Below are positions 17 through 36,396 of a DNA stretch of 61,854 nucleotides, in pieces. This DNA comes from Anaerolineae bacterium (GTDB lineage Bacteria; Chloroflexota; Anaerolineae; B4-G1). The stretch's first letter is position 1. Each line of letters begins with the position of its first letter. Below the pieces are notes generated by a model. That model had not been told where the DNA came from. It searched no databases and saw nothing but the letters and a program-made list of their open reading frames with translations. Both the position numbers and the translations under genes were made by a program. The stretch is from NCBI GenBank assembly GCA_034432855.1, contig DAOUBA010000147.1, positions 1 through 61,854 on the forward strand, read 5' to 3'.

Positions 17-90
17 GCCACAAAGGACACGACGGTCACACGAAGGACACAAAGGTATCCTTAGTGTCCTTTGTGTATCCTTTTTGTCCC
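17..90. repeat. AAGGACAC-unit phased repeat with inverted partner, 3' of the aminotransferase gene
   Basis: gccacaaaggacacgacggtcacacgaaggacacaaagg followed by gtgtcctttgtgtatcc. The 14-mer cacaaaggacacga (19-32) recurs at 54593-54606. Confidence 0.5.
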
Positions 91-121
91 TGGTGGTTTT
101 ATTGGTTCCGGCTTGTCCGGG

Positions 122-1390
122 TTAGGGATTAGGAAAGGATTGTTTGAAGATTGTGATCGCGGTTTCGATCTGCTCCTCCGTGACGATGAGGGGCGGCATC
201 CAGCGCACGACGTTATCATATGCGCCGCAGGTCAACAACAACAGGCGCCGCTCCAGACAGCGCCCGATCACCTCTTTGACGACGGCGGAAGCCGGCGTAC
301 GGTCGGCGGCGGTGAACTCGGTGGCGACCATCAGCCCCAGCCCACGCACGTCGCCGATGACCGGGAACTCACGTTGCAGTTCGCGCAGCCGTTCCAGCAA
401 GAGCGCGCCCTGGCGCTGCGCGTTCTCCAGCAGTCCCTCCTCGCGGATGACGCGCACGGTGGCGACCGCCGCAGCGCAGGCGACGGCGTTGCCGCCGTAG
501 GTGCCGCCGTGCGAGCCGGGCGTCCATCGCTCCATCAGCTCCCGCCGCGCCGCCACACACGAGAGCGGCAACCCGGAGGCCAGCCCCTTCGCCATCACCA
601 GAATATCCGGCGTGACGCCAAAGTGCTCTATGGCGAACCACCTGCCGGTGCGCCCGAATCCGCACTGAATCTCGTCGGCGATGAGCAGAATCCCGTGCTC
701 ATCGCAGATACGGCGCACGCCCTGCAGAAAGCCCGGCGGCGGCACGACGTAGCCCCCCTCGCCCAGCACCGGCTCGATCAGGATCGCCGCCGTCTCTGCG
801 GGCGCGGTCTGGGTCCTGAGCAGGAATTCCAATTCGCGCAGACAGAACGCCTCGGTCTGCTCGGGACTCCAGCCATAGCGGTAGGCGTACGGGTACGGCG
901 CGGTAAAGACGCCCGCCGGCAGGGGTTGATATCCGGCGCGGTAGATCGTCTTGGAGGTGGTCAATGCCATCGCCAACGCAGTGCGACCGTGGAAACTACC
1001 CTGGAAGACAATGACGTTGGGCCGTCCAGTCGCGTGACGGGCCAGTTTAATCGCGCCCTCGACCGCCTCTGCGCCGCTGTTGGAGAAGAAGAAGCAGTCA
1101 ATCGTCGGCGGCACGATCGTACGCAGTTCCCGCGCCAATTCCAGGAGCGGCCTGTGGTAGACGATGTTGACCTGCCCATGCAGGAGTCTGGTCGCCTGTT
1201 CCCGGATCGCCTGCACCACCCGGGGGTGGCAATGGCCGGTATTGGTCACGGCGATGCCACAGGTGAAATCCAGGTAGCGCGCGCCGTCTTCACCGTAGAT
1301 ATAAGCCCCCTCCGCCCGTTCCGCTACGATAGGGGTGTAGCGTTTCCAGACGGGAGAGATGAGAGATTCCGACGATAGTGATTTGCGCAT
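122..1390 (-). CDS. class-III PLP aminotransferase (4-aminobutyrate / omega-amino acid type)
   Basis: 422-aa ORF. Motifs: FSNSGAEAVEGAIKLAR, LIADEIQCGFGRTG, DILVMAKGLASG (PLP lysine), GGTYGGN. GGAGG RBS before the ATG at 1390. Confidence 0.85.
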   Translation of the reverse strand: MRKSLSSESLISPVWKRYTPIVAERAEGAYIYGEDGARYLDFTCGIAVTNTGHCHPRVVQAIREQATRLLHGQVNIVYHRPLLELARELRTIVPPTIDCFFFSNSGAEAVEGAIKLARHATGRPNVIVFQGSFHGRTALAMALTTSKTIYRAGYQPLPAGVFTAPYPYAYRYGWSPEQTEAFCLRELEFLLRTQTAPAETAAILIEPVLGEGGYVVPPPGFLQGVRRICDEHGILLIADEIQCGFGRTGRWFAIEHFGVTPDILVMAKGLASGLPLSCVAARRELMERWTPGSHGGTYGGNAVACAAAVATVRVIREEGLLENAQRQGALLLERLRELQREFPVIGDVRGLGLMVATEFTAADRTPASAVVKEVIGRCLERRLLLLTCGAYDNVVRWMPPLIVTEEQIETAITIFKQSFPNP

Positions 1391-1444: not shown

Positions 1445-3253
1445 CTACCCCGTGTCCCACCCGCGCAGTTCGTAGTAGAGCGGCAGCAGCCGCTCCAGGT
1501 CGGGGAGGTTGCCGGCTGCGCCGCCGGAGGGCCGTGGCTCCGTCAGCAAGCGGCGGGGCAGCGTGTCGTCGGTGCGGGTGATGCCCAACCTCAGGTTGAT
1601 CTGCCGCTTCAGGTTGAACAGCCGCTCGCCGGTGCACAACAGGTCGTCGGCGCTCCAGTCCCAGCCGGTCGCCGCGTTGACCAGCGCCGCAGTCCGTGCC
1701 GGGGCCAGGCCGCCCTTGATCATGAATTTGCACAGCCCCAGCGGGTTGAAGACGCTCAGATAGTTCTGAAACGTGATCACCAGGCGCACGGTTTCCTCGT
1801 TAGAGGCCAGGCGGTCATAAGGGCCTTCCTGCCAGCCGGGCCACTCGATGCCATAGCCACGCCAGTAGGTGCCGCTCTCCAGGTGACAGGCGCCGCGGTT
1901 GGCGGTGGCATAGTTGAGTCCCATGTCCACAAAGGCGCGCGGGTCGTGATAGGCCACCTCCAGCCCTTTGACGTGGATGGCGAAGGATTCCGCTTCTGGC
2001 CCCAGCCGCGATGCCGCCGTGCGGACACCCTCGGCCAGTAACGCCCCCAGCCCTTCGCGGCGCGCGATCTGTTCGAGCAATGTCAGCACCGGCCCAGGCT
2101 CCCCCCACGCCAGGCGCAGACCACCCGCCTCTTCCGGCGCGATCAGGCCCCGCTCCATTGCCTCGGTGGCGAAGGCGATCACGCCGGAGGTGGAGATCGT
2201 ATCCAGCCCCAGGTCATTGCAGCGCGCGTTAATCGCCGCCAGCGCCTCCAGGTTATCAATCAACAGGTTGCTGCCAAAGCCGCACAGTGTCTCGTACTCC
2301 GGCCCCTCGCCCCAGGTTCCGGCGTAGGGGCCATCCTTGACTTCGATCACCTTGCCGCAGCCGAGCGGGCAGGCATGGCAAAAGGTATCCCGCACGCGCA
2401 GCTTCTCGCGGATGGACAGACCGGAGATGGCCTGCGCCCCGTCGGGCCAGGAGCCCTCCTGCCAGTTCTTGAGCGGCAGGCCGCCGAATTTCTCCGCGCC
2501 GGGGATACCGCCGGCCGTGCCTGTCAAAGACATCCCCTCGGAGCGCAAGCGGATGTAATTGTTGGCTTCCCTTACCAGGGCGCGGAGGCGCGCCGGGTCG
2601 GCATAGGTGGGACGCAGCGCTGCATCCTTACCTCCACCGTACACGACGATTGCCTTGAGGTTCTTCGACCCCAGCAATGCCCCCATCCCGCCGCGTCCCG
2701 CTGCCCGGTTATGCGCGTGACCGTCAACCATCACCCCGGCCAACGGGACGCCGTTCTCCCCTGCCGGGCCGATGCAGGCGGCGCGGGTGCCGGGAGCGGT
2801 ATCCTTTAACAGGCGCGCGTGCGTCTCGAACGTCCCGCGTCCCCACAGGTGACCAGCCTCCCGCACCTCGGCCTGCCCGTTGTGCACCCACAGATAGACC
2901 GGAACCGCTGCCCGCCCGGTGATCACCAGCCCATCCAGCCCGGCAAAGCGCAGTGCTGCTCCCCAGTGGCCGCCCACGTTCGACTCGTTCCAGATGCCGG
3001 TGAGGGGGGAACGCCCGCACCAGGACGTTCGCGCCGCGCCCGGGGCAAAGCTGCCGGTCAGCAGGCCGTTAAAGACGAGGAGAGGAGCCTCGGGGAGTGT
3101 GGGAGCCGGGAGGTGAGGGAGTTGAGAGAACAGGTGGGCTGCCAGACCACTGCCCAGCAACCATGTCGAGACATCCTCAGCAATGACCGGCTCCTGGGTG
3201 ACCGTCCCGCTGCTCAGGTCCACCCGCAGATACCACCCGGCGTGTACGCTCAT
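1445..3253 (-). CDS. aldehyde:ferredoxin oxidoreductase family (tungstopterin enzyme), copy 1
   Basis: 602-aa ORF. AOR-like N-terminus (YLRVDLSSGTV), GRGGMGALLGSKNLKAIVV and CHACPLGCG cluster motif. GAGGAGG RBS. Its start overlaps the stop of the upstream gene by 4 nt. Confidence 0.85.
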   Translation of the reverse strand: MSVHAGWYLRVDLSSGTVTQEPVIAEDVSTWLLGSGLAAHLFSQLPHLPAPTLPEAPLLVFNGLLTGSFAPGAARTSWCGRSPLTGIWNESNVGGHWGAALRFAGLDGLVITGRAAVPVYLWVHNGQAEVREAGHLWGRGTFETHARLLKDTAPGTRAACIGPAGENGVPLAGVMVDGHAHNRAAGRGGMGALLGSKNLKAIVVYGGGKDAALRPTYADPARLRALVREANNYIRLRSEGMSLTGTAGGIPGAEKFGGLPLKNWQEGSWPDGAQAISGLSIREKLRVRDTFCHACPLGCGKVIEVKDGPYAGTWGEGPEYETLCGFGSNLLIDNLEALAAINARCNDLGLDTISTSGVIAFATEAMERGLIAPEEAGGLRLAWGEPGPVLTLLEQIARREGLGALLAEGVRTAASRLGPEAESFAIHVKGLEVAYHDPRAFVDMGLNYATANRGACHLESGTYWRGYGIEWPGWQEGPYDRLASNEETVRLVITFQNYLSVFNPLGLCKFMIKGGLAPARTAALVNAATGWDWSADDLLCTGERLFNLKRQINLRLGITRTDDTLPRRLLTEPRPSGGAAGNLPDLERLLPLYYELRGWDTG

Positions 3254-3657
3254 GCCGCCTCCTCACTGACCTGCAGGCTCGCCGATTCATGTTCCTGCGC
3301 CAACCGCTGGAACAGCCGCGCCACCTCACGGATGGGCAGTCTGGCCGCCGCGTCGCGGTAGAAACGGGCCGCCGCCTCTTCCTGCTCCTGCGCCTGGGCC
3401 CGAAGCGCCGCCGCTTCGGCCTGGGGGTCGAGCGTCACGGCGTACGCGTTGCCATCCAGCCCGGTGATGGATTCCAGGATCATCTCGGCCACGCCCTCGC
3501 GGCGGGCCTGCTCCAGCCGCGCCAGCCGTTTACGGGCGGCCTGCTCCAGCTCCTGCAGGGAAGGCACAACCTCGCCCGCCGTCTCATAGAAAGCCGCGCT
3601 CTGTTCCTCCATCTGCATCGCAAAGCGCAAAATCGCGCCAAAAGTACCCAGCTCCAT
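3250..3657 (-). CDS. small ferritin/rubrerythrin-like helical protein (hypothetical)
   Basis: 135-aa ORF, two-fold A..ME..SAAFY / EE.AARFY helix pattern, translationally coupled to AOR copy 1. No metal-ligand ExxH motif was seen. Confidence 0.5.
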   Translation of the reverse strand: MELGTFGAILRFAMQMEEQSAAFYETAGEVVPSLQELEQAARKRLARLEQARREGVAEMILESITGLDGNAYAVTLDPQAEAAALRAQAQEQEEAAARFYRDAAARLPIREVARLFQRLAQEHESASLQVSEEAA

Positions 3658-3670
3658 ACCATACCCCCTC

Positions 3671-3756
3671 TGCGAATGTACGAATCTACGAATCCACGAA
3701 TATGCGAATGTGCCAGCGATGCGCCATTCGTCAGTTCGTCAATTCGCAAATTCGCT
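3671..3756. repeat. 8-nt-phased palindromic repeat (CGAAT arm / ATTCG arm)
   Basis: tgcgaatg tacgaatc tacgaatc cacgaata tgcgaatg, loop tgccagcgatgcg, then ccattcgt cagttcgt caattcgc aaattcgc. Lies between the mmsA stop and the ferritin-like gene start. Confidence 0.7.
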
Positions 3757-5209
3757 AGAACCACCGGCTGATGACCACTTTCCGGTCGGTGAAGAACTGG
3801 ATTGCATCGCGGCCCTGGCCGTGCAGATCGCCAAAGAAGGACTGCTTCATCCCGGCGAAGGGGAAAGTGGCGATGGGTGCGGCGACGCCGATGTTGACGC
3901 CGATATTGCCGCATTTGACCCGGTATTTGAACTCGCGCGCCCACTTTCCGCTGGAGGTGAAGATTGACGCTGCGTTGCCATAGGGAATGGCCTCGATGAT
4001 GGCGAGCGCCTCCTCGAAATCGGCCGCCGGGATGATACCCAGCACCGGGCCAAATATCTCGTCCTGTGCGATCGCCATCTCCAGGCGCACCCGGTCAAAG
4101 ATCGTCGGGCCGACAAAGTAGCCGTTGGGATTGCCGGCCACGGCGACTGTGCGCCCATCGAGCAACAACTCTGCGCCTTCCTGCACACCTTTTTCGATGT
4201 AACCCAACACGCGCTCCTTTGCCTTGCGCGAGACCACCGGCCCCATCTGCACGCTCTCGTCCAGCCCATCGCCGACCTTGATGCGCGCCGCCGCTTCTAC
4301 CAGGCGCTCCTTCAGCGGCTCATAGACCTTGCCGACGGCCAACACGAGCGCTCCGGCCAGGCAGCGCTGTCCGGCCGTACCGAAGGCCGAGGTGAGGATC
4401 GCCGCGACCGTCCCTTCCAGCGCAGCGTCGGGCATCACCACCAGCGCGTTCTTGGCTCCGGCCTGGCACTGCGCCCGTTTGCCGTTGGCCGCCGCCGTGG
4501 CGTAGATATACTTCCCCACCGGCGTCGAGCCGACAAAGGAGACGCCCGCCACGTCGGGGTGTGTGAGTAGCGCGTCCACCACGCCCTTTGCCCCATTGAC
4601 CAGGTTGATCACGCCAGGCGGGAATTCCGCCTCGTCCAGCAGTTCGAATATCTGGTTCTGGCTGACCGGGCAGACCTCGGAGGGCTTGACAATGTAGGTG
4701 TTGCCACAGGCGACAGCATAGGGCATGAACCAAAACGGCACCATTGCCGGGAAGTTGAAGGGCGCCACGCAGCAGAAAACACCGACCGGCTGGAGGACGC
4801 ACTCCTCGTCAATGCCGGCGGCGATGTCCTCGGCGTTGTAACCCATCATCAGCGAGGGAACGCCGGCCGCCACCTCGACGTTCTCGATGGCCCGGCGCAC
4901 CTCGCCCCGCGCCTCATCTATGATTTTGCCATGCTCGATAGTGATGGTGTGGGCCAGGTCCTCGAAATGCTCCTCCATCAACGCCTTGAGGCGGAACATA
5001 TAGCGCGAGCGCACCACGGCGGGCGTTTCGCGCCATTCCTGGAACGCCTCCTTCGCAGCGACTATGGCCCGATTAACCTCATCGGTCGTCGAAAGAGGGA
5101 CACGTGCGATCACTTCGTCGGTAGCAGGGTTGTGCACGTCCAGCAATTCACTCGAAGTCGAGGTTACCCATTCGCCGCCGATATAGTTCTTGAGTGTTCC
5201 GTAGCGCAT
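3755..5209 (-). CDS. mmsA: methylmalonate/malonate-semialdehyde dehydrogenase (CoA-acylating)
   Basis: Aldehyde dehydrogenase fold with MmsA-type motifs (GTLKNYIGGEW, FNFPAMVPFWFMPYAVACGNTYIVKPSE, QRCLA). ATG at 5209 follows a GGGAGGAAG RBS; the track ORF begins earlier at a TTG. Confidence 0.85.
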   Translation of the reverse strand: MRYGTLKNYIGGEWVTSTSSELLDVHNPATDEVIARVPLSTTDEVNRAIVAAKEAFQEWRETPAVVRSRYMFRLKALMEEHFEDLAHTITIEHGKIIDEARGEVRRAIENVEVAAGVPSLMMGYNAEDIAAGIDEECVLQPVGVFCCVAPFNFPAMVPFWFMPYAVACGNTYIVKPSEVCPVSQNQIFELLDEAEFPPGVINLVNGAKGVVDALLTHPDVAGVSFVGSTPVGKYIYATAAANGKRAQCQAGAKNALVVMPDAALEGTVAAILTSAFGTAGQRCLAGALVLAVGKVYEPLKERLVEAAARIKVGDGLDESVQMGPVVSRKAKERVLGYIEKGVQEGAELLLDGRTVAVAGNPNGYFVGPTIFDRVRLEMAIAQDEIFGPVLGIIPAADFEEALAIIEAIPYGNAASIFTSSGKWAREFKYRVKCGNIGVNIGVAAPIATFPFAGMKQSFFGDLHGQGRDAIQFFTDRKVVISRWF

Positions 5210-5517
5210 GACTTCCTCCCTTATTTCTGGTTCTCGGTACAAAACGCCGTAGGAGGGCTCCAGAGTCCGAAATCGGCGTCAGAGACGCCTCTTACCACAG
5301 TTTTGTACCGGAAACTATTTCTAAGCATTGGCGATGTCGGGCGCATATAAATCTTGGGGGGGACGAACGTTGGTTGAGCGCCGCCGTGTGCTCAAAGCAC
5401 ACGGCTGAGCCAAAAAGCCCTGTCGGGCTTATTTTCAGCCCCCGAAGGGGGCTTTTGCCTGTTCAGCCCGGTGCTTTAGCGCCGGGCACGAGACAGTCAG
5501 CACTTCCCCCCCAAGTG

Positions 5518-8642: not shown

Positions 8643-8677
8643 CACGTGCTACGCCTTACGTTTCACGTTTCACGCAT
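8643..8677. repeat. 7-nt-phased nACGnnn repeat (single arm)
   Basis: cacgtgc tacgcct tacgttt cacgttt cacgcat. Spans the last codons of AOR copy 2 and the ferredoxin 5' UTR, and resembles the right arms at 32320-32364 and 48940-48978. Confidence 0.5.
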
Positions 8678-10456
8678 CATATCGGCCAATCCCAACTCGG
8701 CCAACTTTTCCGGCGTCGGGACGCCATCCTCGTCCCAGCCGCGCAGCCGGTAGTATTCGCTCAGCACGGCATCGTATTCCTCGCGTGTGAAATTCTTACC
8801 CGCAGTAGCGCCTTCGGGCAACGGGCGGTCGAAGATGGCCGGCGGTGGGATGTCGTCCTTGCGATGAAAGCCCTCGCGCACATTGAAGATGCGGCCCAGG
8901 TTCCAGATACGCTCGCCGATCTTGTAGATATCGGCCTCGGTATAGGGCTGGCCGGTGCCGGCGGCAAGCAGTCGCGTGAGCGTAACTCCGTCTATGGCCC
9001 AAAAGTCGCAAAAGATACCGGTCCACTTGACGGAATTAAAGTTTTGCAGCGCCATGGTCATCTCGGCCCTGCCCTCCAGCGTGAAGGGGTCTGCGCCGGC
9101 GAAGGCATCGTTCGCCACAGTCCAGGCGCGCATGTGGCAGCCGCCCCGGTCGGAGGTACAGTAGGCCAGCGCCATGCCGTAGGAGCCGCGCGGATCGTAG
9201 GCCGGGAACTCCAGCCCTTTGTTTTCCATCACCAGATGGCCTGCGCCATACTTCTGAGCGATGTAGCGTGCTCCTCTGGAGAGTTCCTCCCCTACCCCAC
9301 GCCGGTAAGCGATGCTCTCGGTCGCTTCCAGGAATTCTTCCGCATCACCAAAGTGGACGCCGAAATCATGGATGCCCTCCTGCGCCATCAACATTGCCAG
9401 GCCCAGCACATTGCCGGTGGAGATGGTATCCAGGCCCAGGTTGTCGCAGAGCCGGTTGAAGGCCGTGACGGTGTCCAGGTCATCCATCGCGCAGTTCGAG
9501 CCACCCATGCCCAGCGTCTCGTACTCCGGCCCCTCCATGGGACCGGCGGCGCTATGGGTAAACTGGCCACAGGCCAGTGGGCAGGTCGCGCAGGCGCGGC
9601 TGGCGCGTTTGCGCTCCTGAAGCGCGTCTGAGTTGATCATCCCGGCCCTCTCGAAGACGCCCTGGCTAAAGCCGCGCGTGGGCAGCAGCCCCGCGCCCTG
9701 CGAGAGGCCGACGATCATTGGAGTGCCTGTGGCGTTGGCCCAAAGGTTGGCCTCGGTCAGCAGATTGGTGCGAAGTATTTCCTCATACAATGCCAGAAAC
9801 GCGCGCATATCCGGCACATGCACCGCTCCTGTGCCATGCACCCCGACGGCCTTGAGGTTCTTGCTGCCAAAGACCGCCCCAACCCCGCCACGCCCGGCCT
9901 GGCGATACGCCTCCGAGGTCAGGCAGGCGAAGGGCACCAGGTTCTCCCCGGCCGGCCCGATCGCGAGCGTGATGAGGTCATTATCACCGGCCTGCGCTTT
10001 CATCCATGCATCCGTCTCCCAGATACCCCGGCCCCACATCGCTGTGGCATCGCGCAGTTCCACCCGCTCGTCCTGGATCAGCAGCGCCGTTGGCTGCGGC
10101 GCCTTTCCGGTGATGATGACGCCGTCATAGCCGGCCAGTTTGAGCTGCAGTGCAAACGCTCCACCGACATAGGAATCGAGGATTGTGCCGGTGGCAGGGG
10201 AGCGGGTGCAGACGACCGTGCGGGCGGTGGTGGCCACGCACGTGCCTGCCAGCGCCCCCGTGAAGATGACGATGGCGTTGGCGGGAGAGAGGGGATCGGT
10301 GTGAGGAGGAAGCAGATCAAAAAGGTAGCGGAAACCCAGTCCTTTGCCGCCGATCAAGTCCCGCGTCCAGGTTTCGTTGAGCGGCTCGGTGAGGATCGTA
10401 CCATTGGCAAGGTCAACACGCAAGACCTTGCCGGCGTAGCAGGTTGTTTGTGTCAT
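8663..10456 (-). CDS. aldehyde:ferredoxin oxidoreductase family, copy 2
   Basis: 597-aa ORF, paralogous to 1445-3253 (YAGKVLRVDLANGT, GRGGVGAVFGSKNLKAVGV, CATCPLACG). GGAGG RBS. Confidence 0.85.
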   Translation of the reverse strand: MTQTTCYAGKVLRVDLANGTILTEPLNETWTRDLIGGKGLGFRYLFDLLPPHTDPLSPANAIVIFTGALAGTCVATTARTVVCTRSPATGTILDSYVGGAFALQLKLAGYDGVIITGKAPQPTALLIQDERVELRDATAMWGRGIWETDAWMKAQAGDNDLITLAIGPAGENLVPFACLTSEAYRQAGRGGVGAVFGSKNLKAVGVHGTGAVHVPDMRAFLALYEEILRTNLLTEANLWANATGTPMIVGLSQGAGLLPTRGFSQGVFERAGMINSDALQERKRASRACATCPLACGQFTHSAAGPMEGPEYETLGMGGSNCAMDDLDTVTAFNRLCDNLGLDTISTGNVLGLAMLMAQEGIHDFGVHFGDAEEFLEATESIAYRRGVGEELSRGARYIAQKYGAGHLVMENKGLEFPAYDPRGSYGMALAYCTSDRGGCHMRAWTVANDAFAGADPFTLEGRAEMTMALQNFNSVKWTGIFCDFWAIDGVTLTRLLAAGTGQPYTEADIYKIGERIWNLGRIFNVREGFHRKDDIPPPAIFDRPLPEGATAGKNFTREEYDAVLSEYYRLRGWDEDGVPTPEKLAELGLADMMRET

Positions 10457-20876: not shown

Positions 20877-20958
20877 CAGGAAGAAAGATGCAAGAGACAA
20901 GATGCAGGAAGCAAGATGCACGACACCAACGATTTTTGCATCTTGCCTCTTGCTTCCT
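20877..20958. repeat. GCAAGAT/GCAGGAA phased repeat forming a hairpin in the dnaK-dnaJ spacer
   Basis: gcaggaagaaagatgcaagagacaagatgcaggaagcaagatgca. Perfect 10-bp stem: gcaagatgca (20911-20920) with tgcatcttgc (20937-20946). Confidence 0.65.
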
Positions 20959-22848
20959 TTACGCTTCGTGGAACTCGCCTTCGACGACCTCTTCACCACC
21001 TGTGGGAGGCTCCTCCCCTGGAGGAGGCGGGGTGCCGGGGCCGGCCCCCTGGTACATCGCGGCCCCTACCTGCTGCAAGACCTGGCTCAACTCGTCCGTG
21101 CGGCGACGGATGGCGGCAACATCGCTCCCCTCCATCGCCCTCCTGAGCGCCTCGATCTTGGCACTCACTTCAGAGCGGAGGTGGCCCGGCACTTTATCTC
21201 CCTGCTCACGCAAAAGTTTCTCGGCGGCATAGACCGCGTTATCGGCGATGTTACGCGCCTCTACCTCCTCCTTCTTCTTCTGGTCTTGCTCGCGGAACTG
21301 CTCGGCTTCGCGCACCATGCGCTCGACCTCGTCTTCGGCGAGGCCGCTGGAGGGAATGATCTGCATGGATTGCTCGCGCCCGGTGGCTTTGTCCTTGGCC
21401 GAGACGTTGAGGATGCCGTTGGCGTCAATGTCGAAGGTGACCTCGATCTGCGGGACACCGCGCGGCGCGGGCGGGATGCCGTCGAGAATAAAACGCCCCA
21501 GACTCTTGTTGTCATAGGCCATGGGGCGCTCGCCCTGCACGACGTGGATCTCTACCTCCGTCTGGCCGTCGGTGGCGGTGGAAAAGATCTGGCTCTTGCG
21601 CGTCGGGATGGTGGTGTTGCGCTCGATGAGCGGGGTCGCCACATGGCCCAGCGTCTCGATGCTCAGCGTGAGCGGGGTCACGTCCAGGAGCAGGATGTCC
21701 TTGACCTCGCCTCCGAGGACGGCGGCCTGGATCGCTGCGCCCAGCCCCACGACTTCGTCGGGGTTGACGCCCTTGTGAGGCTCCTTACCGAAGAACTCGG
21801 CCACCTTCTTCTGAACGGCGGGCATCCGCGTCATGCCGCCCACCAGGATAACCTCATCAATCTCGGAGGGTTTGAGTTTGGCATCGGCCAGCGCCTGCCT
21901 GCAGGGCCCGATGGTGCGCTCGATCAGGTCCTCGGTCAGTTGCTCCAGTTTGGCGCGGGTGAGTCTCATCTGCAGGTGCTTGGGGCCAGAAGCGTCGGCA
22001 GTGATGAAAGGTAGGTTGATCTCGGTCTCCATCACGGTGGAGAGTTCGATCTTGGCCTTCTCGCAGGCCTCGCGCAGCCGCTGGAGCGCCTGACGGTCGT
22101 CGCGCAGGTCAATGCCCTGGTCCTTCTTGAACTCGTCGGCCACGTAGTCAATGATCCGGCGGTCCCAGTCATCGCCGCCCAGGAAAGTGTCGCCGTTGGT
22201 GGCGCGCACCTCAAAGACGCCCTCGCCGACGTCGAGGATGGAGATGTCGAACGTGCCGCCGCCCAGGTCGAAGACGGCGATGGTCTCATCCTTCTTTCTG
22301 TCGAGGCCGTAGGCCAGGCTGGAGGCCGTCGGCTCGTTGATGATGCGCAACACTTCGAGACCGGCGATGCGACCGGCGTCTTTGGTTGCCTGGCGCTGGC
22401 TGTCGTTGAAGTAGGCGGGGACGGTGATGACTGCCTGGGTGATCGGCTCGCCCAGGTAGGCCTCGGTGTCGGTCTTGATCTTTTGCAGGATCATGGCCGA
22501 GATCTCTGGCGGGCTGTATTCCTTGCCGCCCATCCAGACGCGCACATCACCGTTAGGCGCTGCGGTGACCTTGTAGGGGACGAGTTTGATCGCCCGCTGC
22601 ACCTCAGGATCGTCGAACTTGCGGCCCATGAAACGCTTGATCGAAAAGATGGTGTTCTCGGGGTTGACGACGGCCTGACGTTTGGCGACCTGCCCGACCA
22701 TGCGTTCTCCTGTGCTGGGGTTGATTGCCACGACCGAAGGCACCAATCGCCCGCCTTCGGCGCTGGGGATGACGGTGGGCTCGCCGCCCAACATGATCCC
22801 ACAGACAGAGTTCGTCGTACCCAAATCAATGCCGATGATTTTGCCCAT
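20959..22848 (-). CDS. dnaK: chaperone DnaK (Hsp70)
   Basis: [28 protein letters not shown] signatures. Confidence 0.97.
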
Positions 22849-24525: not shown

Positions 24526-24552
24526 TTAGCACTCTCGCTTATCGAGTGCTAA
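24526..24552 (-). promoter_or_regulatory. CIRCE operator (HrcA binding site)
   Basis: TTAGCACTC-tcgcttatc-GAGTGCTAA: a perfect 9-N9-9 inverted repeat, 13 nt upstream of the hrcA start. Confidence 0.9.
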
Positions 24553-24789: not shown

Positions 24790-25293
24790 ATGTCGCCGAT
24801 TCCTGTGATCGCCTTTGTGGGCCGCTCGAAAAGCGGCAAGACCACGCTGCTGGAGAAATTGATCCGCGAACTTGCACGGCGCGGGTATCATGTCGCTGCC
24901 GTCAAGCACACCGCTCACCCCATTGAACCCGACGCGCCGGGGAAGGACACCTACCGCTTCGTACAGGCCGGCGCCGTTGAGGCCATCCTGGCTGCGCCGG
25001 AGATGACGCTGGAAGAAGCACTGGCCGGCGTGCGGGACGTTGACCTCGTGTTGGTCGAGGGCTACAAGCGGGCGGACGTGCCCAAGATCGAGGTGAGCAG
25101 GGGGCAGGAAGCAGGAAGCAAGATGCAAGATGCGGGAGGTTTGGTGTGCGCAGAAGATGAAAGATTGTTAGCCATAGTCTCTGACCGGCGGTTCGACGTG
25201 GATGTGCCGCAGTTTGATGTGCACGATGTGGTGCGGCTGGCCGATTGGATTGAGGAGCGGTTTTTGGGGCGAATCAGCAAGTTGGCGAAGTAG
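24790..25293 (+). CDS. mobB: molybdopterin-guanine dinucleotide biosynthesis adapter MobB
   Basis: VIAFVGRSKSGKTTLLEKLI P-loop, VAAVKHTAH, DLVLVEGYK. ATG at 24790. Confidence 0.85.
   Translation: MSPIPVIAFVGRSKSGKTTLLEKLIRELARRGYHVAAVKHTAHPIEPDAPGKDTYRFVQAGAVEAILAAPEMTLEEALAGVRDVDLVLVEGYKRADVPKIEVSRGQEAGSKMQDAGGLVCAEDERLLAIVSDRRFDVDVPQFDVHDVVRLADWIEERFLGRISKLAK
25104..25133. repeat. GCAGGAA/GCAAGAT phased repeat inside the mobB CDS
   Basis: gcaggaagcaggaagcaagatgcaagatgc. The 17-mer 25111-25127 is identical to 20904-20920. It encodes QEAGSKMQDA. Confidence 0.65.
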
Positions 25294-25328
25294 CGGGGCG
25301 GCAGGTCGGCAAATCAGAGGCGGATGGG

Positions 25329-26858
25329 ATGTGCATCAATCGCAAGGAATGGCGCTGGGTACTTTGGCTAACGCTGGCACTGGTGATCGCCAGTTGTGTG
25401 CCCTATCTCATCGCCTGGGCTGTGACGCCACAGGGCGCGCATTTCACCGGCATTCTCTTCAACCCGCAGGACGGCCATTCGTATCTCGCCAAGATGCGCC
25501 AGGGGCTTGCCGGATCGTGGTTGCTCCGCCTGCCCCATACGCCGGAGCCGCAGCGGGGCGCGCCGGTGTATCTCTTTTATCTGCTGCTGGGGCACATCGC
25601 GCGCTGGACGGGCTCATCGCTTATCCCGATGTACCACGCAGCGCGGGTGCTGGGCGGCGCGCTGATGCTGGTGACGCTCTACGCGTTAGCCTCACATCTG
25701 AGCACGGATGTCGGTGAGCGCCGGGCGATGTTCCTTCTGGCAGCGGTAGGGTCAGGTATGGGGTGGCTGGCAGGATCGTTGGGCCTGATGACAGCCGACT
25801 TGTGGGTGCCGGAAGCATTCCCCATCTATGCGCTGCTGGCAAATGCACACTTTCCGCTGGCGACCGGATTGATGGCTGGTATTGCGTATTGCGTATTGCG
25901 TGTTACGTATGGCGGTAGGCGTTCTGGGCTGTGGGGATTGGGCATAACCATCCTGGCCGCGACGTTGGGCGTGGTGCAGCCATTCGGGCTGGTCTCTGTG
26001 TTCGGCGGGGTAGGGGTGATGCTGGTAGCGCAGGCTGTGCGCGAGCGGCGAATGCCGTGGCGGGGGACTTTCTGGACTGTGACGGCCATAGCGGCGGCGC
26101 TTCCATATCCACTATACATGCAATGGGCGCTGAACCGCGATCCGGTGTTGGCGGTGTGGAATGCTCAGAATGTGACCCCCTCTCCGCCGCTGTGGGATTG
26201 GACGCTGAGTTACGGGCTGGTGCTGGTGCTGGCCGTGTTGGGAAGCGTCGTCGCAGCGCGGCGCGGCGCCGGCGGCTGGTTGCTCCTGGGCTGGGGCGCC
26301 GCGACGCTGGTGGGGATGTATCTGCCGTTGCCCTTGCAGCGCCGCCTGAGCCTGGGGTTGGGTGTGCCACTGGGATTGCTGGCGGGCCTGGGGTGGTGGC
26401 GGCTGCGCGCCCGACTCCGGCCACGTAGCAGAGGCCTGGCGCATGGGCTGGTGGTAGCCTTTTGTGCGCTGACGCCGCTCTTTCTCGTGCTGATGGCGGT
26501 GCTGGCTGCGTCCGGCGGCTCGTCGTGGTTCTACCTGAGCGGCGACGAATGGGCTGCGCTCGCCTGGCTACGTGAGGAGGGCCATCCTGACGCGGTTGTG
26601 TTGTGCGAACCGCGACTGGGGCTATTCGTGCCTGCGTGGGCCGGGCAGCCGGTCGTTTACGGCCACCCATTCGAGACGGTGAACGCGGCTCAGCGCAAGG
26701 CGCAGGTGGAGGCGTTCTTTCGTGGGGAGATGACCGGCGAGGAACAGGAGCGCTTTTTGCGGGAGAACGACGTTGGGTATGTGGTGGGAGACGGTGGGGT
26801 AGGAGTTTGGGGATTGGTGTTCAGGTCAGGGAGTGTGAGGGTGTATGAGGTGAGGTAG
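25329..26858 (+). CDS. polytopic membrane protein, putative GT-C-fold glycosyltransferase (paralog A)
   Basis: 509 aa with many TM segments. Shares SYLAKMRQG, NAQN.T.SPP and YLP..LQRRL with the next gene. Confidence 0.7.
   Translation: MCINRKEWRWVLWLTLALVIASCVPYLIAWAVTPQGAHFTGILFNPQDGHSYLAKMRQGLAGSWLLRLPHTPEPQRGAPVYLFYLLLGHIARWTGSSLIPMYHAARVLGGALMLVTLYALASHLSTDVGERRAMFLLAAVGSGMGWLAGSLGLMTADLWVPEAFPIYALLANAHFPLATGLMAGIAYCVLRVTYGGRRSGLWGLGITILAATLGVVQPFGLVSVFGGVGVMLVAQAVRERRMPWRGTFWTVTAIAAALPYPLYMQWALNRDPVLAVWNAQNVTPSPPLWDWTLSYGLVLVLAVLGSVVAARRGAGGWLLLGWGAATLVGMYLPLPLQRRLSLGLGVPLGLLAGLGWWRLRARLRPRSRGLAHGLVVAFCALTPLFLVLMAVLAASGGSSWFYLSGDEWAALAWLREEGHPDAVVLCEPRLGLFVPAWAGQPVVYGHPFETVNAAQRKAQVEAFFRGEMTGEEQERFLRENDVGYVVGDGGVGVWGLVFRSGSVRVYEVR
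25881..25910. repeat. ATTGCGT heptamer repeat inside a CDS
   Basis: attgcgt attgcgt attgcgt gttacgt at. Encodes IAYCVLRVTY. Confidence 0.6.
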
Positions 26859-26935
26859 GAGGGAGCAGGAGGCAGGAGGCAAGAGGCAGGGGGTGTTGAG
26901 GGATGGGGGATAGGCAATATGCGATATGCGAAAGA
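26855..26935. repeat. GCAGGAG(G) and ATATGCG phased repeats in an intergenic spacer
   Basis: ggagggagcaggaggcaggaggcaagaggcaggggg ... gataggcaatatgcgatatgcgaaagacg. Confidence 0.55.
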
Positions 26936-26950
26936 CGCGAGTGGGGTTTT

Positions 26951-28573
26951 ATGCTCGTATGGAGTGTGTTTGCTCTCGCCATCACGTCTGTCCCTTACGT
27001 TCTGGGCGCGATTTGGGCGACAGAGAACCGCGTCTTTGGCGGGTTTGTGTTTGCGCTGGAGGATTGCTACTCCTACTTAGCCAAGATGCGCCAGGGGGCC
27101 GAGGGGGCCTGGCTGTTTCACATTGCTTACACTGCTGAACCCCATATCGGCACACTGTTCTTCCCGTTCCATTTGCTGTTGGGGAAAATTGCAGCGCTTT
27201 TGCCGGGCAGAGATCTCACGCTGCGGCTGGTGTGGGTCTATCACATCGCGCGCTGGATTTTCGGGATGGGCCTGCTGCTGACCGTGTACCGCTTCCTGGC
27301 CGAATTCACGGCACGTGTGGCGGTGCGGCGGTTGGCCTGGCTGATGGTTACATTCGGCGGGGGACTCGGCTGGCTGTTGGTCACGCTGGGACAGCCCGGA
27401 TGGTTGGGCAGCCAGCCGCTCGACTTTATCCTCCCCGAAGGATTTACCTTTCTCGTCCTCTATGCTTTCCCCCACATCGCCCTTGCGCGGACCCTGCTCC
27501 TGTGGGGGGTGCTGTTTTTGCTTCGAGCCTGGGAATGCGATGACGGAATACGCAATACGCAATACGTATTTCGTATTCCGTGTTCCGTTTTGGCGGGTGT
27601 TGTATGGTTGCTGATGGGCTTCATCGTGCCGTTCTACATCGCCGTCGCGTGGGCAGTGACCGGCGCGGCGTGGATTGTGCTAGGGATCCGTAAACGGCGG
27701 GCGATGTGGCGCGAGGCGGCACAGGCAGGGATTGTGGCGCTCATCTCTTGTCCGATCGTGCTCTACAGCGCGTGGGTATTCAGAACTCAGCCGGTGTATA
27801 CGGTTTGGGCTGCGCAGAATACAATCCGGTCGCCGCACCCGTTGCACTACCTGGCGGCCTATGGCGTACCCCTGATGCTGGCCGTCTTTGCGTTGCGCGA
27901 CGCCTGGCACGAGAAGCGGCCCGTGTGGCTGGCGATCGCGTGGGTGGGCGTTGTGCCTCTCCTAGTCTACCTGCCGTTCAACCTGCAACGGCGGCTGGTG
28001 GAGGGCATGCAGGTACCGTTGAGCCTGCTGGCAGCGATGGGTCTCTGGAAGATCGCAGGTGAAGTCGGCAAGTTGAGCCCGCTATCCCGAATCTCGAATC
28101 TCAGGTCTGTACTGGTGATGATTGTTGGCATCGCCGTGTTGTTGCTGACGAACGTCATACTGGTCGCAGGGAACTGCCTGGCGTTGCGCGGATTGCCTGC
28201 GCCGGTCTACCGTGACGCCGGTGAGATCGCGGCGCTGGACTGGCTCGGCGGGCAGGTTGGGCCGACTGACGTCGTGCTCTCGGCTTACGAGACGGGGAAC
28301 TATCTTCCTGCGCGGATACGGGCGCGTTCGTTCCTGGGCCACGGGCCGGAGACCGTTTACTTTGCGGAGAAGAAACTGCTCGTGGCCCGCTTCTTCGATG
28401 AGGCGACAGGCGAAAGGTGGCGCTACGAGTTGCTGGACTATTATGGTGTGAACTATGTTTTTTGGGGCCCGGCGGAGCGGCGTCTGGGCAACTATGACCC
28501 GCACGTGTCGTCATATTACCTGTTGCCCGTCTACGAAGCAGGAGAATACTCCATTTTCAGGGTTGTGCAATAG
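26951..28573 (+). CDS. polytopic membrane protein, putative GT-C-fold glycosyltransferase (paralog B)
   Basis: Paralog of 25329-26858. ATG 26951 is preferred because the earlier ORF start (26903) lies in repeat DNA. Confidence 0.7.
   Translation: MLVWSVFALAITSVPYVLGAIWATENRVFGGFVFALEDCYSYLAKMRQGAEGAWLFHIAYTAEPHIGTLFFPFHLLLGKIAALLPGRDLTLRLVWVYHIARWIFGMGLLLTVYRFLAEFTARVAVRRLAWLMVTFGGGLGWLLVTLGQPGWLGSQPLDFILPEGFTFLVLYAFPHIALARTLLLWGVLFLLRAWECDDGIRNTQYVFRIPCSVLAGVVWLLMGFIVPFYIAVAWAVTGAAWIVLGIRKRRAMWREAAQAGIVALISCPIVLYSAWVFRTQPVYTVWAAQNTIRSPHPLHYLAAYGVPLMLAVFALRDAWHEKRPVWLAIAWVGVVPLLVYLPFNLQRRLVEGMQVPLSLLAAMGLWKIAGEVGKLSPLSRISNLRSVLVMIVGIAVLLLTNVILVAGNCLALRGLPAPVYRDAGEIAALDWLGGQVGPTDVVLSAYETGNYLPARIRARSFLGHGPETVYFAEKKLLVARFFDEATGERWRYELLDYYGVNYVFWGPAERRLGNYDPHVSSYYLLPVYEAGEYSIFRVVQ
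27545..27587. repeat. palindromic AATACGC-unit repeat inside a CDS
   Basis: ggaatacg caatacg caatacg tatttcg tattccg tgttccg. ggaatacg (27545-27552) pairs with cgtattcc (27572-27579). Encodes GIRNTQYVFRIPCSV. Confidence 0.65.
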
Positions 28574-28582
28574 GGGATGCGG

Positions 28583-28640
28583 CATTGGTAATTAGGGATT
28601 GGGGAACGGGTAAACTGCAAACTTGCAAACTTGCAAACTG
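28583..28640. repeat. ATTGGGGA-like and CTTGCAAA phased repeats
   Basis: cattggtaattagggattggggaacggg taaactgcaaacttgcaaacttgcaaactgg. Overlaps the annotated N-terminus of the YfhO-like ORF. Confidence 0.6.
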
Positions 28641-31140
28641 GCCGGCCGTTGCATGCTGCTCGTTGTTTGCCCTTTGCCTTTTGTGGCGGCCGCTTTTTGC
28701 CGGCGAAGCCTTCTATTGGGGCGCGCCGCTCTTGCAGTTTATCCCCTGGCAGCGTTTTGCCGCCGAAATGTGGCGATCGGGCCACGTGCCGTTGTGGAAT
28801 CCGCTGGTCGGATGTGGGGCCCCCCTGGCAGCCAACTACCAGTCAGCCGTGTTCTACCCGCTGAACGCGCTCTACCTGCTGCTCCCGGCCGAGATGGCAC
28901 TCGGTTGGACGGTCGCTCTGCACCTGGCGCTCGCCGGGGTGGGGATGTACGCCTGGGGGCGCGCGGTTGGCCTGGAGCGATTCCCGGCGCTCATTGCCGG
29001 GCTGGCGCTGGAAGGGAGCGGCTTTCTGGTGGCGCGCGCGGCGCTCTTCCCCAGCATCGCGCTCACCTTCCCCTGGGTCGCCGTCTGGCTATGGCGCGGC
29101 GAGATGCTCGTGCAGCGCTGTCGGCTTCAAGATGCGCTCTGGCTGGGATTGGCGCTGGGGATGGGGCTGCTGGCGGGGCATGCACAAACTGCCTTCTACG
29201 GTGGCTTGCTGTTGGCGGCATATTGCGTGTTTCGTGTTGCATGCTCCGTTTCCCGGAATTGGCGACCGTTCATTGTTCATTGTTCGTTGTTCATTGTCTC
29301 ATTGCTGATCGGCGTTGGTCTGGCAGCGGTGCAGTTGTTGCTTACTGCGGAGTTGATGTTGCAATCCCAACGTGCTAGTGGCGTGGATTATGACTTTGCG
29401 ATGACCTATTCGTTCTGGCCGTGGCGGCTGTTCACATTCCTCGCGCCGGATTTCTTCGGCAACCCTGGCCGGGGCGACTATTGGGGGTATGCCACATATT
29501 GGGAAGACGCGGGGTACGTAGGGGTGTTACCGTTGTTGCTGGCGGTGTGGGCAGTGGTGCGGAAGGGCAGGGGAGCAGGGGAGCGGAGGAGCAGGGGTGC
29601 AAGGGCGCAGGTTGGGTTTTGGGCAGGGTGTGTTGTGGCGGGGTTGGTGCTGGCGTTGGGCAAGAATACGCCGCTGTTCTCGTTCCTGTTCCGCCACATC
29701 CCTACCTTCGACCTGTTCCAGGCCCCGGCGCGCTGGCTGGCCGTGACGACCGTGGCGCTGGCGGCGCTGGCCGGGATTGGCGCGCAGGTGTGGCCTGTGG
29801 GACGAGCAGGTCAACGGCAGGGAACGTTATGGCTGGTTATCGGCGTGGCGCTGGCTGTCGGGGGGTGGGCCGCGCCACACCTGATCGCCGGGGAGCGACT
29901 GGCGACCTTTGGCGCGGCCACGCTGCGATTTGGCGTCACGTTGGCTGTGGCAGGCGCGCTCGTGCTATGGCGAACGAGTACCAGGCTTCAGCCCAATGCT
30001 ACTAACATTCCATCTGGGCAGTGCGTGGGACAGGCTTTCCAGCCTGTCGGCGTGGGAGAGGCTTTCCAGCCTGTCGGCAGCCTGGAAAGGCTGCCCCATA
30101 CCCGCTTTGCGCCCGTCGAAAAGCCTCCAACAAGGCAGCGAACGCGAAAAGCTAGTGCCATGGGGCTCCGGCCTGCTTGGGTACGTGTTGTTCTCCTATG
30201 GCAGGTCGCCGTCCTTATCTGCGTTGGGCTTGACCTGCTTTTGTTCGGCTGGCCGCTCGTGCCGTCGGTGGATCGCACACTGTACCAGGGTAATGCGCAC
30301 GCGGTTTTGAGCCAGTTGCGGAACGGGCGTATCTACTGGCCCACCGATCCGGCCCACCCCGGAAGCGAGTACGATGCTGAATACCGCCTCAAGTTCGGCT
30401 ATTTGACCTTTCGCAGTTTCGGGCCGCGTGATGTGGCGTATTGGCGCGGCATGCGCGAGATGCTTATCCCCAATATCGGCATGCTCGACGGCATTGCAAC
30501 CGCCAACGATTTTGATCCTCTGCTGGTGAGCCGTTACGCCGAGATGATGGCAGCAATCCCTGCTTCGCCGAATCTCCTGCGTGTGATGGGCGTGACGCAC
30601 ATCGCCAGCGACCGAACCCGGCCAACCGGGGAGCCGGTCTATACGAGTACCGACATCACACTCTACCATCTTTCCAACGCTCTGGGCCGCGCCTGGATCG
30701 TCCCTGCCGCGCGCCAGGTTCCTGCCGACCAGATGCTCGCTGCCCTTACCAGCCCCACCTTCGACCCTGCCACCCACGTGCTGATCGAGGCTTCACCCCC
30801 TTACCCCAATCCCTATTCCCTAATCCCTAATCCCTATACCCTCTCCTTGCACGATACCCCCAACGGCGTTACAATACGCGCCGCACTGGATGCGCCTGGC
30901 TACCTGGTGTTGGCCGATACCTGGTACCCAGGCTGGCAGGCAAAAGTAGACGGCAAACCTGTCGAGATCCTGCGCGCGAATCATGCCTTTCGAGCGGTGT
31001 ATCTGGACGCCGGAGGGCATACGGTGGAAATGGTCTATCGGCCCTGGTCATTCATTGCTGGGATGGGTGTGTCGGGCATGATGGGGGCTGGTTGGTTGGT
31101 TAGTTGGTTAGTTGGTAGGCTGAGGAGACGAGGTGCATAA
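28585..31140 (+). CDS. YfhO-family membrane glycosyltransferase-like protein
   Basis: 851 aa. YfhO-like N-terminal motif (LLQFIPWQRFAAEMWRSGHVPLWNPLVGCGAPLAANYQSAVFYPLN), many TM segments and a C-terminal extracytoplasmic domain. The start (TTG 28585) is uncertain. Confidence 0.7.
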   Translation: MVIRDWGTGKLQTCKLANWPAVACCSLFALCLLWRPLFAGEAFYWGAPLLQFIPWQRFAAEMWRSGHVPLWNPLVGCGAPLAANYQSAVFYPLNALYLLLPAEMALGWTVALHLALAGVGMYAWGRAVGLERFPALIAGLALEGSGFLVARAALFPSIALTFPWVAVWLWRGEMLVQRCRLQDALWLGLALGMGLLAGHAQTAFYGGLLLAAYCVFRVACSVSRNWRPFIVHCSLFIVSLLIGVGLAAVQLLLTAELMLQSQRASGVDYDFAMTYSFWPWRLFTFLAPDFFGNPGRGDYWGYATYWEDAGYVGVLPLLLAVWAVVRKGRGAGERRSRGARAQVGFWAGCVVAGLVLALGKNTPLFSFLFRHIPTFDLFQAPARWLAVTTVALAALAGIGAQVWPVGRAGQRQGTLWLVIGVALAVGGWAAPHLIAGERLATFGAATLRFGVTLAVAGALVLWRTSTRLQPNATNIPSGQCVGQAFQPVGVGEAFQPVGSLERLPHTRFAPVEKPPTRQRTRKASAMGLRPAWVRVVLLWQVAVLICVGLDLLLFGWPLVPSVDRTLYQGNAHAVLSQLRNGRIYWPTDPAHPGSEYDAEYRLKFGYLTFRSFGPRDVAYWRGMREMLIPNIGMLDGIATANDFDPLLVSRYAEMMAAIPASPNLLRVMGVTHIASDRTRPTGEPVYTSTDITLYHLSNALGRAWIVPAARQVPADQMLAALTSPTFDPATHVLIEASPPYPNPYSLIPNPYTLSLHDTPNGVTIRAALDAPGYLVLADTWYPGWQAKVDGKPVEILRANHAFRAVYLDAGGHTVEMVYRPWSFIAGMGVSGMMGAGWLVSWLVGRLRRRGA
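29221..29305. repeat. phased TTCGTGT / CATTGTT repeats inside a CDS
   Basis: tattgcgtgtttcgtgttgcatgctccg ... ttcattgttcattgttcgttgttcattgtctcattgc. Encodes YCVFRVACSV...FIVHCSLFIVSLLI. Confidence 0.55.
29566..29610. repeat. GCAGGGGA purine-rich phased repeat inside a CDS
   Basis: ggcaggggagcaggggagcggaggagcaggggtgcaagggcgcag. Positions 29574-29597 match 31639-31662 at 22/24. Confidence 0.65.
30033..30095. repeat. 27-nt-period direct repeat plus inverted copy inside a CDS
   Basis: ggctttccagcctgtcggc at 30033-30051 and 30060-30078, then agcctggaaaggctgcc. Encodes GQAFQPVGV GEAFQPVGS. Confidence 0.7.
30796..30843. repeat. AATCCCT phased repeat inside a CDS
   Basis: ccccttaccccaatccctattccctaatccctaatccctataccc. 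30804-30815 is the exact reverse complement of 28593-28604. Confidence 0.65.
31089..31118. repeat. GTTGGTTA 8-mer repeat at the CDS 3' end
   Basis: tggttggttggttagttggttagttggtag. Encodes GWLVSWLVGR. Confidence 0.6.
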
Positions 31141-32282: not shown

Positions 32283-32364
32283 ACGTAATGCGTAACACGT
32301 AAGGTGTAATCACGTTTTACGTCTTGCGCTTTACGTTTTACGTGTTACGCCTTACGCCTCACGG
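32283..32364. repeat. CGTAA/TTACG phased palindromic element
   Basis: acgtaatgcgtaacacgtaaggtgtaat / cacgttttacgtcttgcgctttacgttttacgtgttacgccttacgcctcacg. Homologous to 48903-48978. Confidence 0.7.
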
Positions 32365-36374: not shown

Positions 36375-36396
36375 GTATTTCCGGAGGTGAGGAACG

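Follow-up and report, generated by a model that had tools for sequence, protein, structure and literature searches.

Facing octamer arrays fill the mmsA spacer of an Anaerolineae bacterium and belong to a class of array hairpins with a purine-first polarity

Between the genes for a methylmalonate-semialdehyde dehydrogenase (mmsA) and a ferritin-like protein, a 61,854-nt (62-kb) stretch of Anaerolineae DNA (contig DAOUBA010000147.1), hereafter the window, carries an element made of two facing tandem arrays of 8-nt units. With a probability of about 0.55, we read this focal element as an inverted-pair variant of the long simple-sequence repeats known as LSSR(5–11), or short tandemly repeated repetitive sequences (STRRs), generated and reshaped through slippage or template switching; any effect on the mRNA would be incidental. 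The anatomy of the element, the excess of similar arrays around it, their turnover and change in unit number between relatives, their occurrence within genes and the lack of a terminator or sense-RNA signature are the observations behind this reading. The class itself is known but unexplained; the novelty lies in facing arrays that form a polar hairpin. All element coordinates are positions in the window, and both genes flanking the focal element are on the minus strand.

On the plus strand, the element opens with five octamers at 3671–3710 (tgCGAATg, taCGAATc, taCGAATc, caCGAATa and tgCGAATg) and, after a 13-nt loop, closes with four inverse octamers at 3724–3755 (ccATTCGt, caGTTCGt, caATTCGc and aaATTCGc). 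All nine units keep an 8-nt phase, exactly as a first-pass annotation of the sequence had described them. Phased together, they give the consensus N-R-CGAAT-N, in which 1 of 45 core cells deviates compared with 10 of 18 flanking cells (Fisher P = 3 × 10−6, for a test picked after the data had been seen). The same annotation had almost the whole spacer taken up by one element, and the array does run from stop codon to ribosome-binding site, a distance of 97 nt: on the transcribed strand, its first base is the G of the mmsA TAG stop codon (3755–3757), and its other end directly abuts the GAGGGGG ribosome-binding site of the next gene (3664–3670), with the ATG (3655–3657) 6 nt further on. Read in the sense direction, the element starts (TA)GCGAAT and finishes ATTCGCAG. 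The ferritin-like gene is followed by an aldehyde:ferredoxin oxidoreductase (AOR) gene and then an aminotransferase gene; because these genes and mmsA succeed one another, the element is intercistronic. The name mmsA is secure, with a TIGR01722 score above the cutoff, whereas 'ferritin-like' is weakly supported (Table 1).

The predicted folding energy of the focal element is −38.0 kcal/mol for the sense (minus) RNA and −30.9 kcal/mol for the antisense RNA (z = −4.6 for each, equalled by 0 of 200 shuffles), which makes the sense RNA the more stable by 7 kcal/mol. The spacer positions of the two arms have no in-register complementarity. In the in-register fold of the plus strand, 5–6-bp helices are separated by 2–3-nt internal loops, in line with the mismatches every 8 nt that had been foreseen for the stem. 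In the transcribed strand, a register shift and G·U pairs at spacer positions are instead predicted to yield a nearly continuous 15-bp outer stem. All the related elements in the window that were folded are strongly structured (z from −3.4 to −8.5).

The focal element is one of many arrays in the window. A periodicity scan against Markov-1 shuffles finds 12 arrays of period 7 and 7 of period 8, where 0.1 of each are expected, an approximately 100-fold excess; Tandem Repeats Finder (TRF) also detects window arrays, with scores of 47–54 for the focal ones. Eight inverted pairs are present, the focal one at 3671–3755 and seven others (Table 1). The further sites at which the first-pass annotation saw the same architecture are all real inverted arrays, but the 8-nt phase is not general: the period is 7 at 20877, 32283 and 48903, 8 at 45776 and in the focal element, and about 9 at 17–90 and 54581. 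Unit sequences mostly differ between these sites, as had been claimed, except in two pairs. The 32283 and 48903 elements align over their full length with 81% column identity, 'variable' positions included, and those at 17–90 and 54581 have both units and the flank CAAGGATTTTRCCAC in common. The loop of 54581–54720 holds an 84-nt insert with a hairpin of its own. Nor is the form strictly intergenic: many arrays fill spacers, but about half of those in the window lie within genes, mostly in a large membrane-protein cluster at 25329–32281, one gene of which matches Pfam YfhO.

The phasing is also found elsewhere. Four CGAAT cores in 8-nt phase occur at no fewer than 120 loci, at least, of GTDB representative genomes from many phyla, where roughly one is expected by chance; among the matches listed are Bacteroidota, Kiritimatiellota, Verrucomicrobiota, Latescibacterota, Chloroflexota, cyanobacteria, Acidobacteriota, Actinomycetota and others, several with an inverse arm. 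CGAAT octamer arrays are present in 71 viral contigs (IMG/VR) as well, although period 8 is not privileged there, as control periods of 6, 7 and 9 each give at least 120 matches.

Class statistics cover the window plus, depending on the test, as many as 280 retrieved loci (some 2.7 Mb). Units are very diverse, most being unique among 294 unseeded arrays; heptamer families ACGCAAT and ACGCATC recur across Anaerolineae genomes. Arrays are 10 points richer in AT than their locus in 81% of cases. In 1.37 Mb of related and seeded loci, period-7/8 arrays are approximately 13-fold enriched in intergenic DNA, with about 70% of them in the 15% of sequence that is intergenic, and their density is 1.7 per kb in co-directional spacers, 1.2 in convergent and 0.7 in divergent ones. 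Some 20% of arrays have a reverse-complement partner within 150 nt (86, versus 12 in a complement-only control). A gapped search gave 135 array hairpins, with a median span of 86 nt, 73% Watson–Crick pairs and about −36 kcal/mol; those in co-directional spacers begin a median of 7 nt past the stop codon and end a median of 21 nt before the next start. An invariant core with free flanking positions is seen in the focal element only, and a conserved core with free spacer positions was rejected as a general rule, 206 arrays being slightly below a uniform model in invariant columns. In one Anaerolineae metagenome-assembled genome (MAG; L117, positions ~100–420), a single intergenic region is pieced together from about eight successive 7–8-nt arrays, each different.

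Orthologous spacers differ in their arrays even between close relatives. The mmsA protein is 92–94% identical to its nearest homologues in Anaerolineae (Chloroflexota) MAGs. The corresponding mmsA-to-ferritin-like spacer holds six copies of GTCCGANG with an inverse arm in L002, six to nine copies of CACGTTNN in L006, L288 and L297, GGCAAGTY ×18 in L285, ATTGGTC ×3 in L003 and L286, ACGSAAT arrays in L064 and L295, and heptamer hairpins in L013, L306 and L287; in L001, which is among the closest relatives (92%), it holds an unrelated hairpin, and in L039, L282–284, L298 and L357 it is 10–40 nt long, with no array. Most of the relatives' units contain ACG/CGT, and the sequences therefore suggest that the arrays were inherited and quickly reshaped where they stood, and not inserted again and again. 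An exact-match search of GTDB representative genomes for the focal arm returned no match. At the dnaK–dnaJ spacer, one heptamer family is found in the window and in L202, L204 and L205 (DnaK 86–90% identical), and here unit number, the quantity that the first-pass annotation had wanted compared, varies at the species level: in that order of genomes, the 5′ arm has 3, 8, 5 and 5 units, the 3′ arm 6, 4, 3 and 2. In L206 the spacer is 6 nt long; in genomes further removed, it holds arrays of unrelated sequence or ordinary hairpins. Upstream of hrcA–grpE–dnaK–dnaJ in the window, at 24526–24552, lies a CIRCE operator, TTAGCACTC-N9-GAGTGCTAA, which is kept in the relatives' dnaK loci.

Turnover of the same kind is seen inside a protein. 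The palindromic heptamer array at 27543 encodes a loop, DDGIRNTQYVFRIPCS, of a 556-residue membrane protein. In 39 homologues (60–76% identical), the flanking helices are conserved and the loop at this site varies in length and sequence, with 7-residue periodicities. The loop DNA of three orthologues (L362, L363 and L364) again consists of heptamer arrays with other units, namely an ACGC/GCGT hairpin, CACGNNT direct repeats and AAATCTC ×4, and the adjacent paralogue (25329–26858, 36% identity) has an ACGCAAT-family array, 25879–25945, at the equivalent alignment position. As heptamer arrays occupy this loop across orthologues, the process is not specific to spacers: arrays persist wherever they are tolerated, in spacers or in a coding loop.

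The array hairpins have a direction. Among the 135, taken from the window and L001–L281, the 5′ arm is the purine-rich one in 95 cases against 37 (P = 5 × 10−7); G exceeds C in the 5′ arm by 95:30 (P = 5 × 10−9) and A exceeds T by 84:45, and all eight window hairpins are A-first. By context, the polarity is 46:12 in co-directional spacers, 24:6 within genes and 14:4 in convergent spacers, and 4:4 in the few divergent ones. Ordinary intergenic hairpins have no polarity (106:120), and solo arrays have no G/C bias on the sense strand (52:49). An initial reading of the polarity relative to transcription was dropped and the test repeated without gene strand, since the palindrome is strand-symmetric; because it reads alike on both strands, the polarity is not a gene-strand effect but sets purine units followed by pyrimidine units apart from the reverse order. 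Avoidance of false ribosome-binding sites is weakened as a cause by the convergent and in-gene cases, and avoidance of Rho loading by the unbiased solo arrays; an explanation through stop codons fails too, since 5′ arms and their reverse complements hold them about equally often. The candidates that remain are the order of synthesis and a directional fold-back mechanism.

In the slippage reading that we prefer, slipped-strand mispairing would make each arm, as a tandem array, gain and lose units and drift in sequence. The arms may be complementary in the RCGAAT core through origin from one palindromic seed, and intrastrand template switching between them possibly keeps them alike. The array would have expanded until it filled the otherwise dispensable spacer between stop codon and ribosome-binding site. 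The operon transcript would carry an imperfect hairpin of ~85 nt (about −38 kcal/mol), which could incidentally slow 3′-exonucleases or change the expression ratio of the two genes. We saw no evidence that the focal sequence is selected for a role in the mRNA, and the diversity of units argues against a sequence-specific reader. Several observations weigh against this reading. Slippage leaves the invariant core and two free positions per unit of the focal element unexplained, although this pattern is not general. It accounts neither for paralogous copies at unlinked sites nor for the strong purine-first polarity, which would not be expected from simple slippage. Length variants of the focal spacer, sought in JGI metagenomes by its flanks and loop with variable arms, were not found. 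Arrays stay at one spacer or loop across genomes that are 60–90% identical in the flanking protein, which could mean selection instead of a repeat that renews itself. Finally, array density in Chloroflexota is uneven: many genomes have none, a few reach up to about 5 per 10 kb, and the window has about 3 per 10 kb, which hints at a lineage-specific factor.

A possible but clearly less probable explanation is that the element is a functional intercistronic RNA hairpin, similar to repetitive extragenic palindromes (REPs) or bacterial interspersed mosaic elements (BIMEs) of E. coli operons, which sets its neighbours' expression ratio by protecting against 3′-exonucleases, serving as a processing site or tuning translational coupling, with the fold rather than the sequence under selection. 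The close fit of co-directional hairpins between stop and start codons, the greater density of arrays where a 3′ end is present, the very stable predicted folds, the retention of position while sequence turns over and the location in operons with plausible differential expression (dnaK–dnaJ and mmsA–ferritin-like–AOR) all favour it, as do the extra stability of the focal sense RNA and its G·U pairs at spacer positions. The strand tests do not: across 62–63 co-directional hairpins, we found no sense-strand excess of G·U over A·C (191:238; per hairpin 28:28) and no sense advantage in energy (sense versus antisense 28:33, P = 0.47). In addition, the spacer positions of the focal arms do not pair in register, close relatives manage without any spacer, and arrays also occur in coding regions and alone, about 80% having no inverse partner and being unable to form a hairpin. 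No Rfam family matches the array hairpins, the sole window match above gathering score being the tRNA-Sec at 48983–49077. A role for the array as an all-frame ribosome stop was tried and rejected, as two or more stop triplets occur in 32 of 62 5′ arms and in 30 of their reverse complements. That the element is an ordinary intrinsic (Rho-independent) terminator of mmsA is very improbable. It resembles one in being a stable stem–loop directly after the stop codon, but a scan of 3200–4200 gave no terminator-like site, the stem has periodic internal loops, and the hairpin is followed not by a U-tract but by the ribosome-binding site and, 12 nt away, the start codon of the co-oriented, co-transcribed gene. 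The class as a whole has no terminator features either: a T-tract follows either end in 7 of 135 array hairpins, and an internal terminator-like site is found in 7 of 135, no different from shuffles (5–13) and less often than in other spacers (100 of 615). Array hairpins are not ordinary terminators, and the earlier doubt that the focal one is a simple terminator was well placed.

Two explanations invoke an enzyme or protein acting on DNA. The element could be a non-autonomous mobile element, akin to MITEs (miniature inverted-repeat transposable elements) or to the REP doublets called REPINs, copied by an enzyme encoded elsewhere in the genome, with tandem units as a property of the element family; we consider this rather improbable. 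The window paralogues with common variable positions and even common flanks speak for it, together with the second hairpin nested in the loop of the 54581 copy, the similar TACGAATN hairpins in unrelated gene contexts in L104, L159, L167 and L178, and the recurrence of the ACGCAAT and ACGCATC families. Against it stand the many different units in very few copies each, instead of one family in hundreds, the change of unit number in place at orthologous arrays and the ACG/CGT theme common to relatives' spacers, a sign that they evolved where they are; neither target-site duplications nor conserved termini were seen, and Pfam and NCBIfam scans of about 50 of the 53 called open reading frames (ORFs) of the 62-kb window found no transposase, REP-associated tyrosine transposase (RAYT; Y1_Tnp) or reverse transcriptase, although a RAYT could lie elsewhere in the genome. 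Less probable still is an element acting at the DNA level, either as a series of sites bound by a protein that recognizes periodic shape or single strands (nucleoid or cold-shock type), or as the scar of directional repair, in which G-rich 3′ ends at a break would prime reiterative or snap-back synthesis, followed by head-to-head joining. The polarity is strand-symmetric and confined to array hairpins, an RNA-strand signature is absent, G-rich units followed by C-rich units would be the layout of two telomere-like arrays fused at their tips, and the uneven spread among lineages suggests an enzyme that only some of them have. On the other side, the analysis yielded no candidate protein or enzyme, and the mechanism is conjectural throughout; unit diversity speaks against sequence-specific binding, and the loss of polarity in divergent spacers, few as they are, would implicate transcription and not repair. 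In a broader and, in our estimate, unlikely scenario, array hairpins may constitute a separate class that spans phyla and has a built-in direction, the purine- and G-rich array always 5′ of its inverse, long-lived at fixed sites (operon spacers and one membrane-protein loop) while their sequence is continually rewritten, which would imply a dedicated process. If so, that process might be directional DNA synthesis, reiterative or snap-back, at sites where breaks or stalls recur, leaving the hairpin as a telomere-fusion-like repair scar, or else selection arising from which arm is synthesized first; both differ from plain replication slippage.

In cyanobacteria, tandem repeats with short units of 7–8 nt go back to 1990, when Mazel reportedly described STRR heptamers, and we know of no established origin or function for them. 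The arrays described here agree with LSSRs and STRRs in their head-to-tail iteration of 7–8-nt units, preference for non-coding DNA, frequent position near the 3′ end of the upstream gene, many units per genome, copy-number variation between relatives at conserved sites, large-genome environmental and filamentous hosts, and lack of a known function. Heptamers are the most frequent LSSR(5–11), and slippage has been put forward as their cause (Mrazek, Guo & Shah 2007, summarised in PMC4679880). GGGAATC repeats occur in Xanthomonas and Nostoc, and intergenic repeats near the 3′ end of the upstream gene are described that vary in length and sequence between Xanthomonas relatives at conserved sites (PMC4692102); the function of such repeats is unsettled even in Nostoc (bioRxiv 10.1101/2022.06.06.494920). 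TAACTGA repeats are described in Beggiatoaceae, in a paper that reports one inverted case among 170 sets (PMC4679880). The LSSRs in the literature covered here are described as direct repeats, with Chloroflexota covered only by (GATAGRA)n in Chloroflexus (PMC6749651), whereas here facing inverse pairs form an ~85-nt hairpin that reaches from stop codon to ribosome-binding site and has a purine-rich 5′ arm. In the literature, which we covered incompletely, we found no published account of inverted arrays of this kind.

REPs form one or a few families of tens to hundreds of copies, with a GTAG/CGTC tag and a linked RAYT transposase, and REPINs are hairpins of about 100 nt built from two inverted units; a role of REPs in stabilising mRNA is said to have been reported by Newbury et al. 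in 1987. The array hairpins resemble REPs, BIMEs and REPINs in being extragenic palindromes of imperfect symmetry that sit between cistrons and in 3′ regions and lack a U-tract, plausibly with similar consequences for the mRNA. They differ in that the arms are tandem arrays, with at least 12 unrelated units in 62 kb and at most 2–3 copies per family; read by eye, the palindrome ends of the eight window hairpins lack the GTAG or CGTC tag. As regards MITEs, the whole element is an inverted repeat, paralogous copies exist and relatives have short 'empty' spacers, but the boundaries are imprecise and no target-site duplication was seen. In Borg elements, tandem repeats create variable protein regions (PMC9879509). 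The arrays share with these and with the simple-sequence repeats of contingency loci an unstable repeat number, and those inside genes, which are envelope-related or neighbour glycosyltransferase genes, give rise to a hypervariable loop. Unlike contingency repeats, their units are degenerate, intergenic copies sit between stop codon and ribosome-binding site rather than in promoters or frames, and no on/off frameshift variants were observed.

The present data add to the known class a high density in Anaerolineae, the finding that a fifth of arrays are facing inverse pairs that run from stop codon to the next ribosome-binding site, a strand-symmetric purine-first polarity, the absence of both terminator character and sense-RNA optimisation, and long occupancy of sites by changing units, one of them in a protein loop. 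Any mechanism has to satisfy these concrete constraints, which can be tested, and their significance would rise if polarity and site persistence reflect a dedicated one. In practice, spacers with arrays break assemblies, mislead gene callers, which read through them, and could pass for terminators or regulatory RNAs.

Table 1 Array elements of the window and the genes next to the focal element
Feature	Position	Strand	Context or basis
Focal 5′ arm, four 8-nt units: GCGAATTT GCGAATTG ACGAACTG ACGAATGG	3724–3755	minus (transcribed)	Sequence read, unit phasing
Focal loop, 13 nt: tgccagcgatgcg on plus strand, CGCATCGCTGGCA on sense strand	3711–3723	minus	Partly paired in predicted folds
Focal 3′ arm, five ATTCG-core octamers: CATTCGCA TATTCGTG GATTCGTA GATTCGTA CATTCGCA	3671–3710	minus	Sequence read, TRF, periodicity scan
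Upstream gene, CoA-acylating methylmalonate-semialdehyde dehydrogenase (mmsA-type)	3755–5242	minus	TIGR01722, 563.8 bits versus cutoff 448.5; Pfam Aldedh
Downstream gene, 135 aa, 'ferritin-like' weakly supported	3250–3657	minus	E = 4 × 10−4 to ferritin-like part of MbfA
Hairpin, period about 9, AAGGACACR units	18–96		Downstream of aminotransferase gene 122–1390 (minus); paralogous to 54581–54720
Hairpin, period 7, AGGAAGC/AAGAGGC/AAGATGC	20877–20959	minus	Takes up dnaK–dnaJ spacer; orthologues in L202, L204, L205
Palindromic heptamer array ACGSAAT/ATTSCGT, coding loop DDGIRNTQYVFRIPCS	27543–27588	plus	Inside membrane-protein gene 26903–28573 (556 aa)
Hairpin, period 7, ACGTAAN/NNTTACG	32283–32363	plus	Fills spacer between gene 31133–32281 and GT2 gene 32374–33093; paralogous to 48902–48977
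Hairpin, period 8, AGTAGACA around GGGG...CCCC core	45775–45847	plus	Between PLP-enzyme gene and ThiS-like gene
Hairpin, period 7, GCGTAAN	48902–48977		5 nt upstream of tRNA-Sec (48983–49077, plus)
Hairpin, period about 9, GGACACRAM	54581–54720		Divergent gatA/M50-peptidase spacer
Eleven further 7/8-nt arrays, mostly in genes, mostly without inverse partner	Region 25097–31700; at 25097, 25879, 26852–26931 (gene boundary), 28605, 29268, 29567, 30797, 31086, 31620, 31672	plus	Periodicity scan, TRF
More arrays outside 25097–31700	8650–8679 and 60068–60100 (inside priA)

Several of the arrays in Table 1 have details of their own. At the gene boundary 26852–26931, Shine–Dalgarno-like heptamers (GCAGGAG/GCAAGAG) lie directly 5′ of the ATG at 26903, and a GATATGC array lies just within the gene. 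The array at 60068–60100, (AATCTGC) ×4.7, is in the priA frame, between the 3′-DNA-binding domain and the helicase core. The priA ORF is flanked by near-perfect hairpins of 19–20 bp (59148–59190 and 61811–61851), in which C/T-rich and then G/A-rich runs have a 5-nt periodicity (CCCCTCCCCTTCCCC.../...GGGGAAGGGGAGGGG), a polarity opposite to that of the array hairpins. The tRNA-Sec gene that starts 5 nt past the 48902 hairpin (Rfam RF01852, 66 bits) is followed by a perfect 28-nt hairpin (49084–49111). Within membrane-protein gene 28585–31140, a 27-nt tandem repeat (30023–30098; ×2.1, 96% match) has a palindrome in each copy.

Elsewhere in the window, 910 nt with no convincing ORF (35487–36396) contain nested long inverted repeats, such as 36055–36095 with 36201–36241 (80% complementary), and have no Rfam match at gathering score. 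At 51898–52826, the gene for an AbiEii-type nucleotidyltransferase toxin lies beside a DUF6922 gene, the two being a likely toxin–antitoxin pair.

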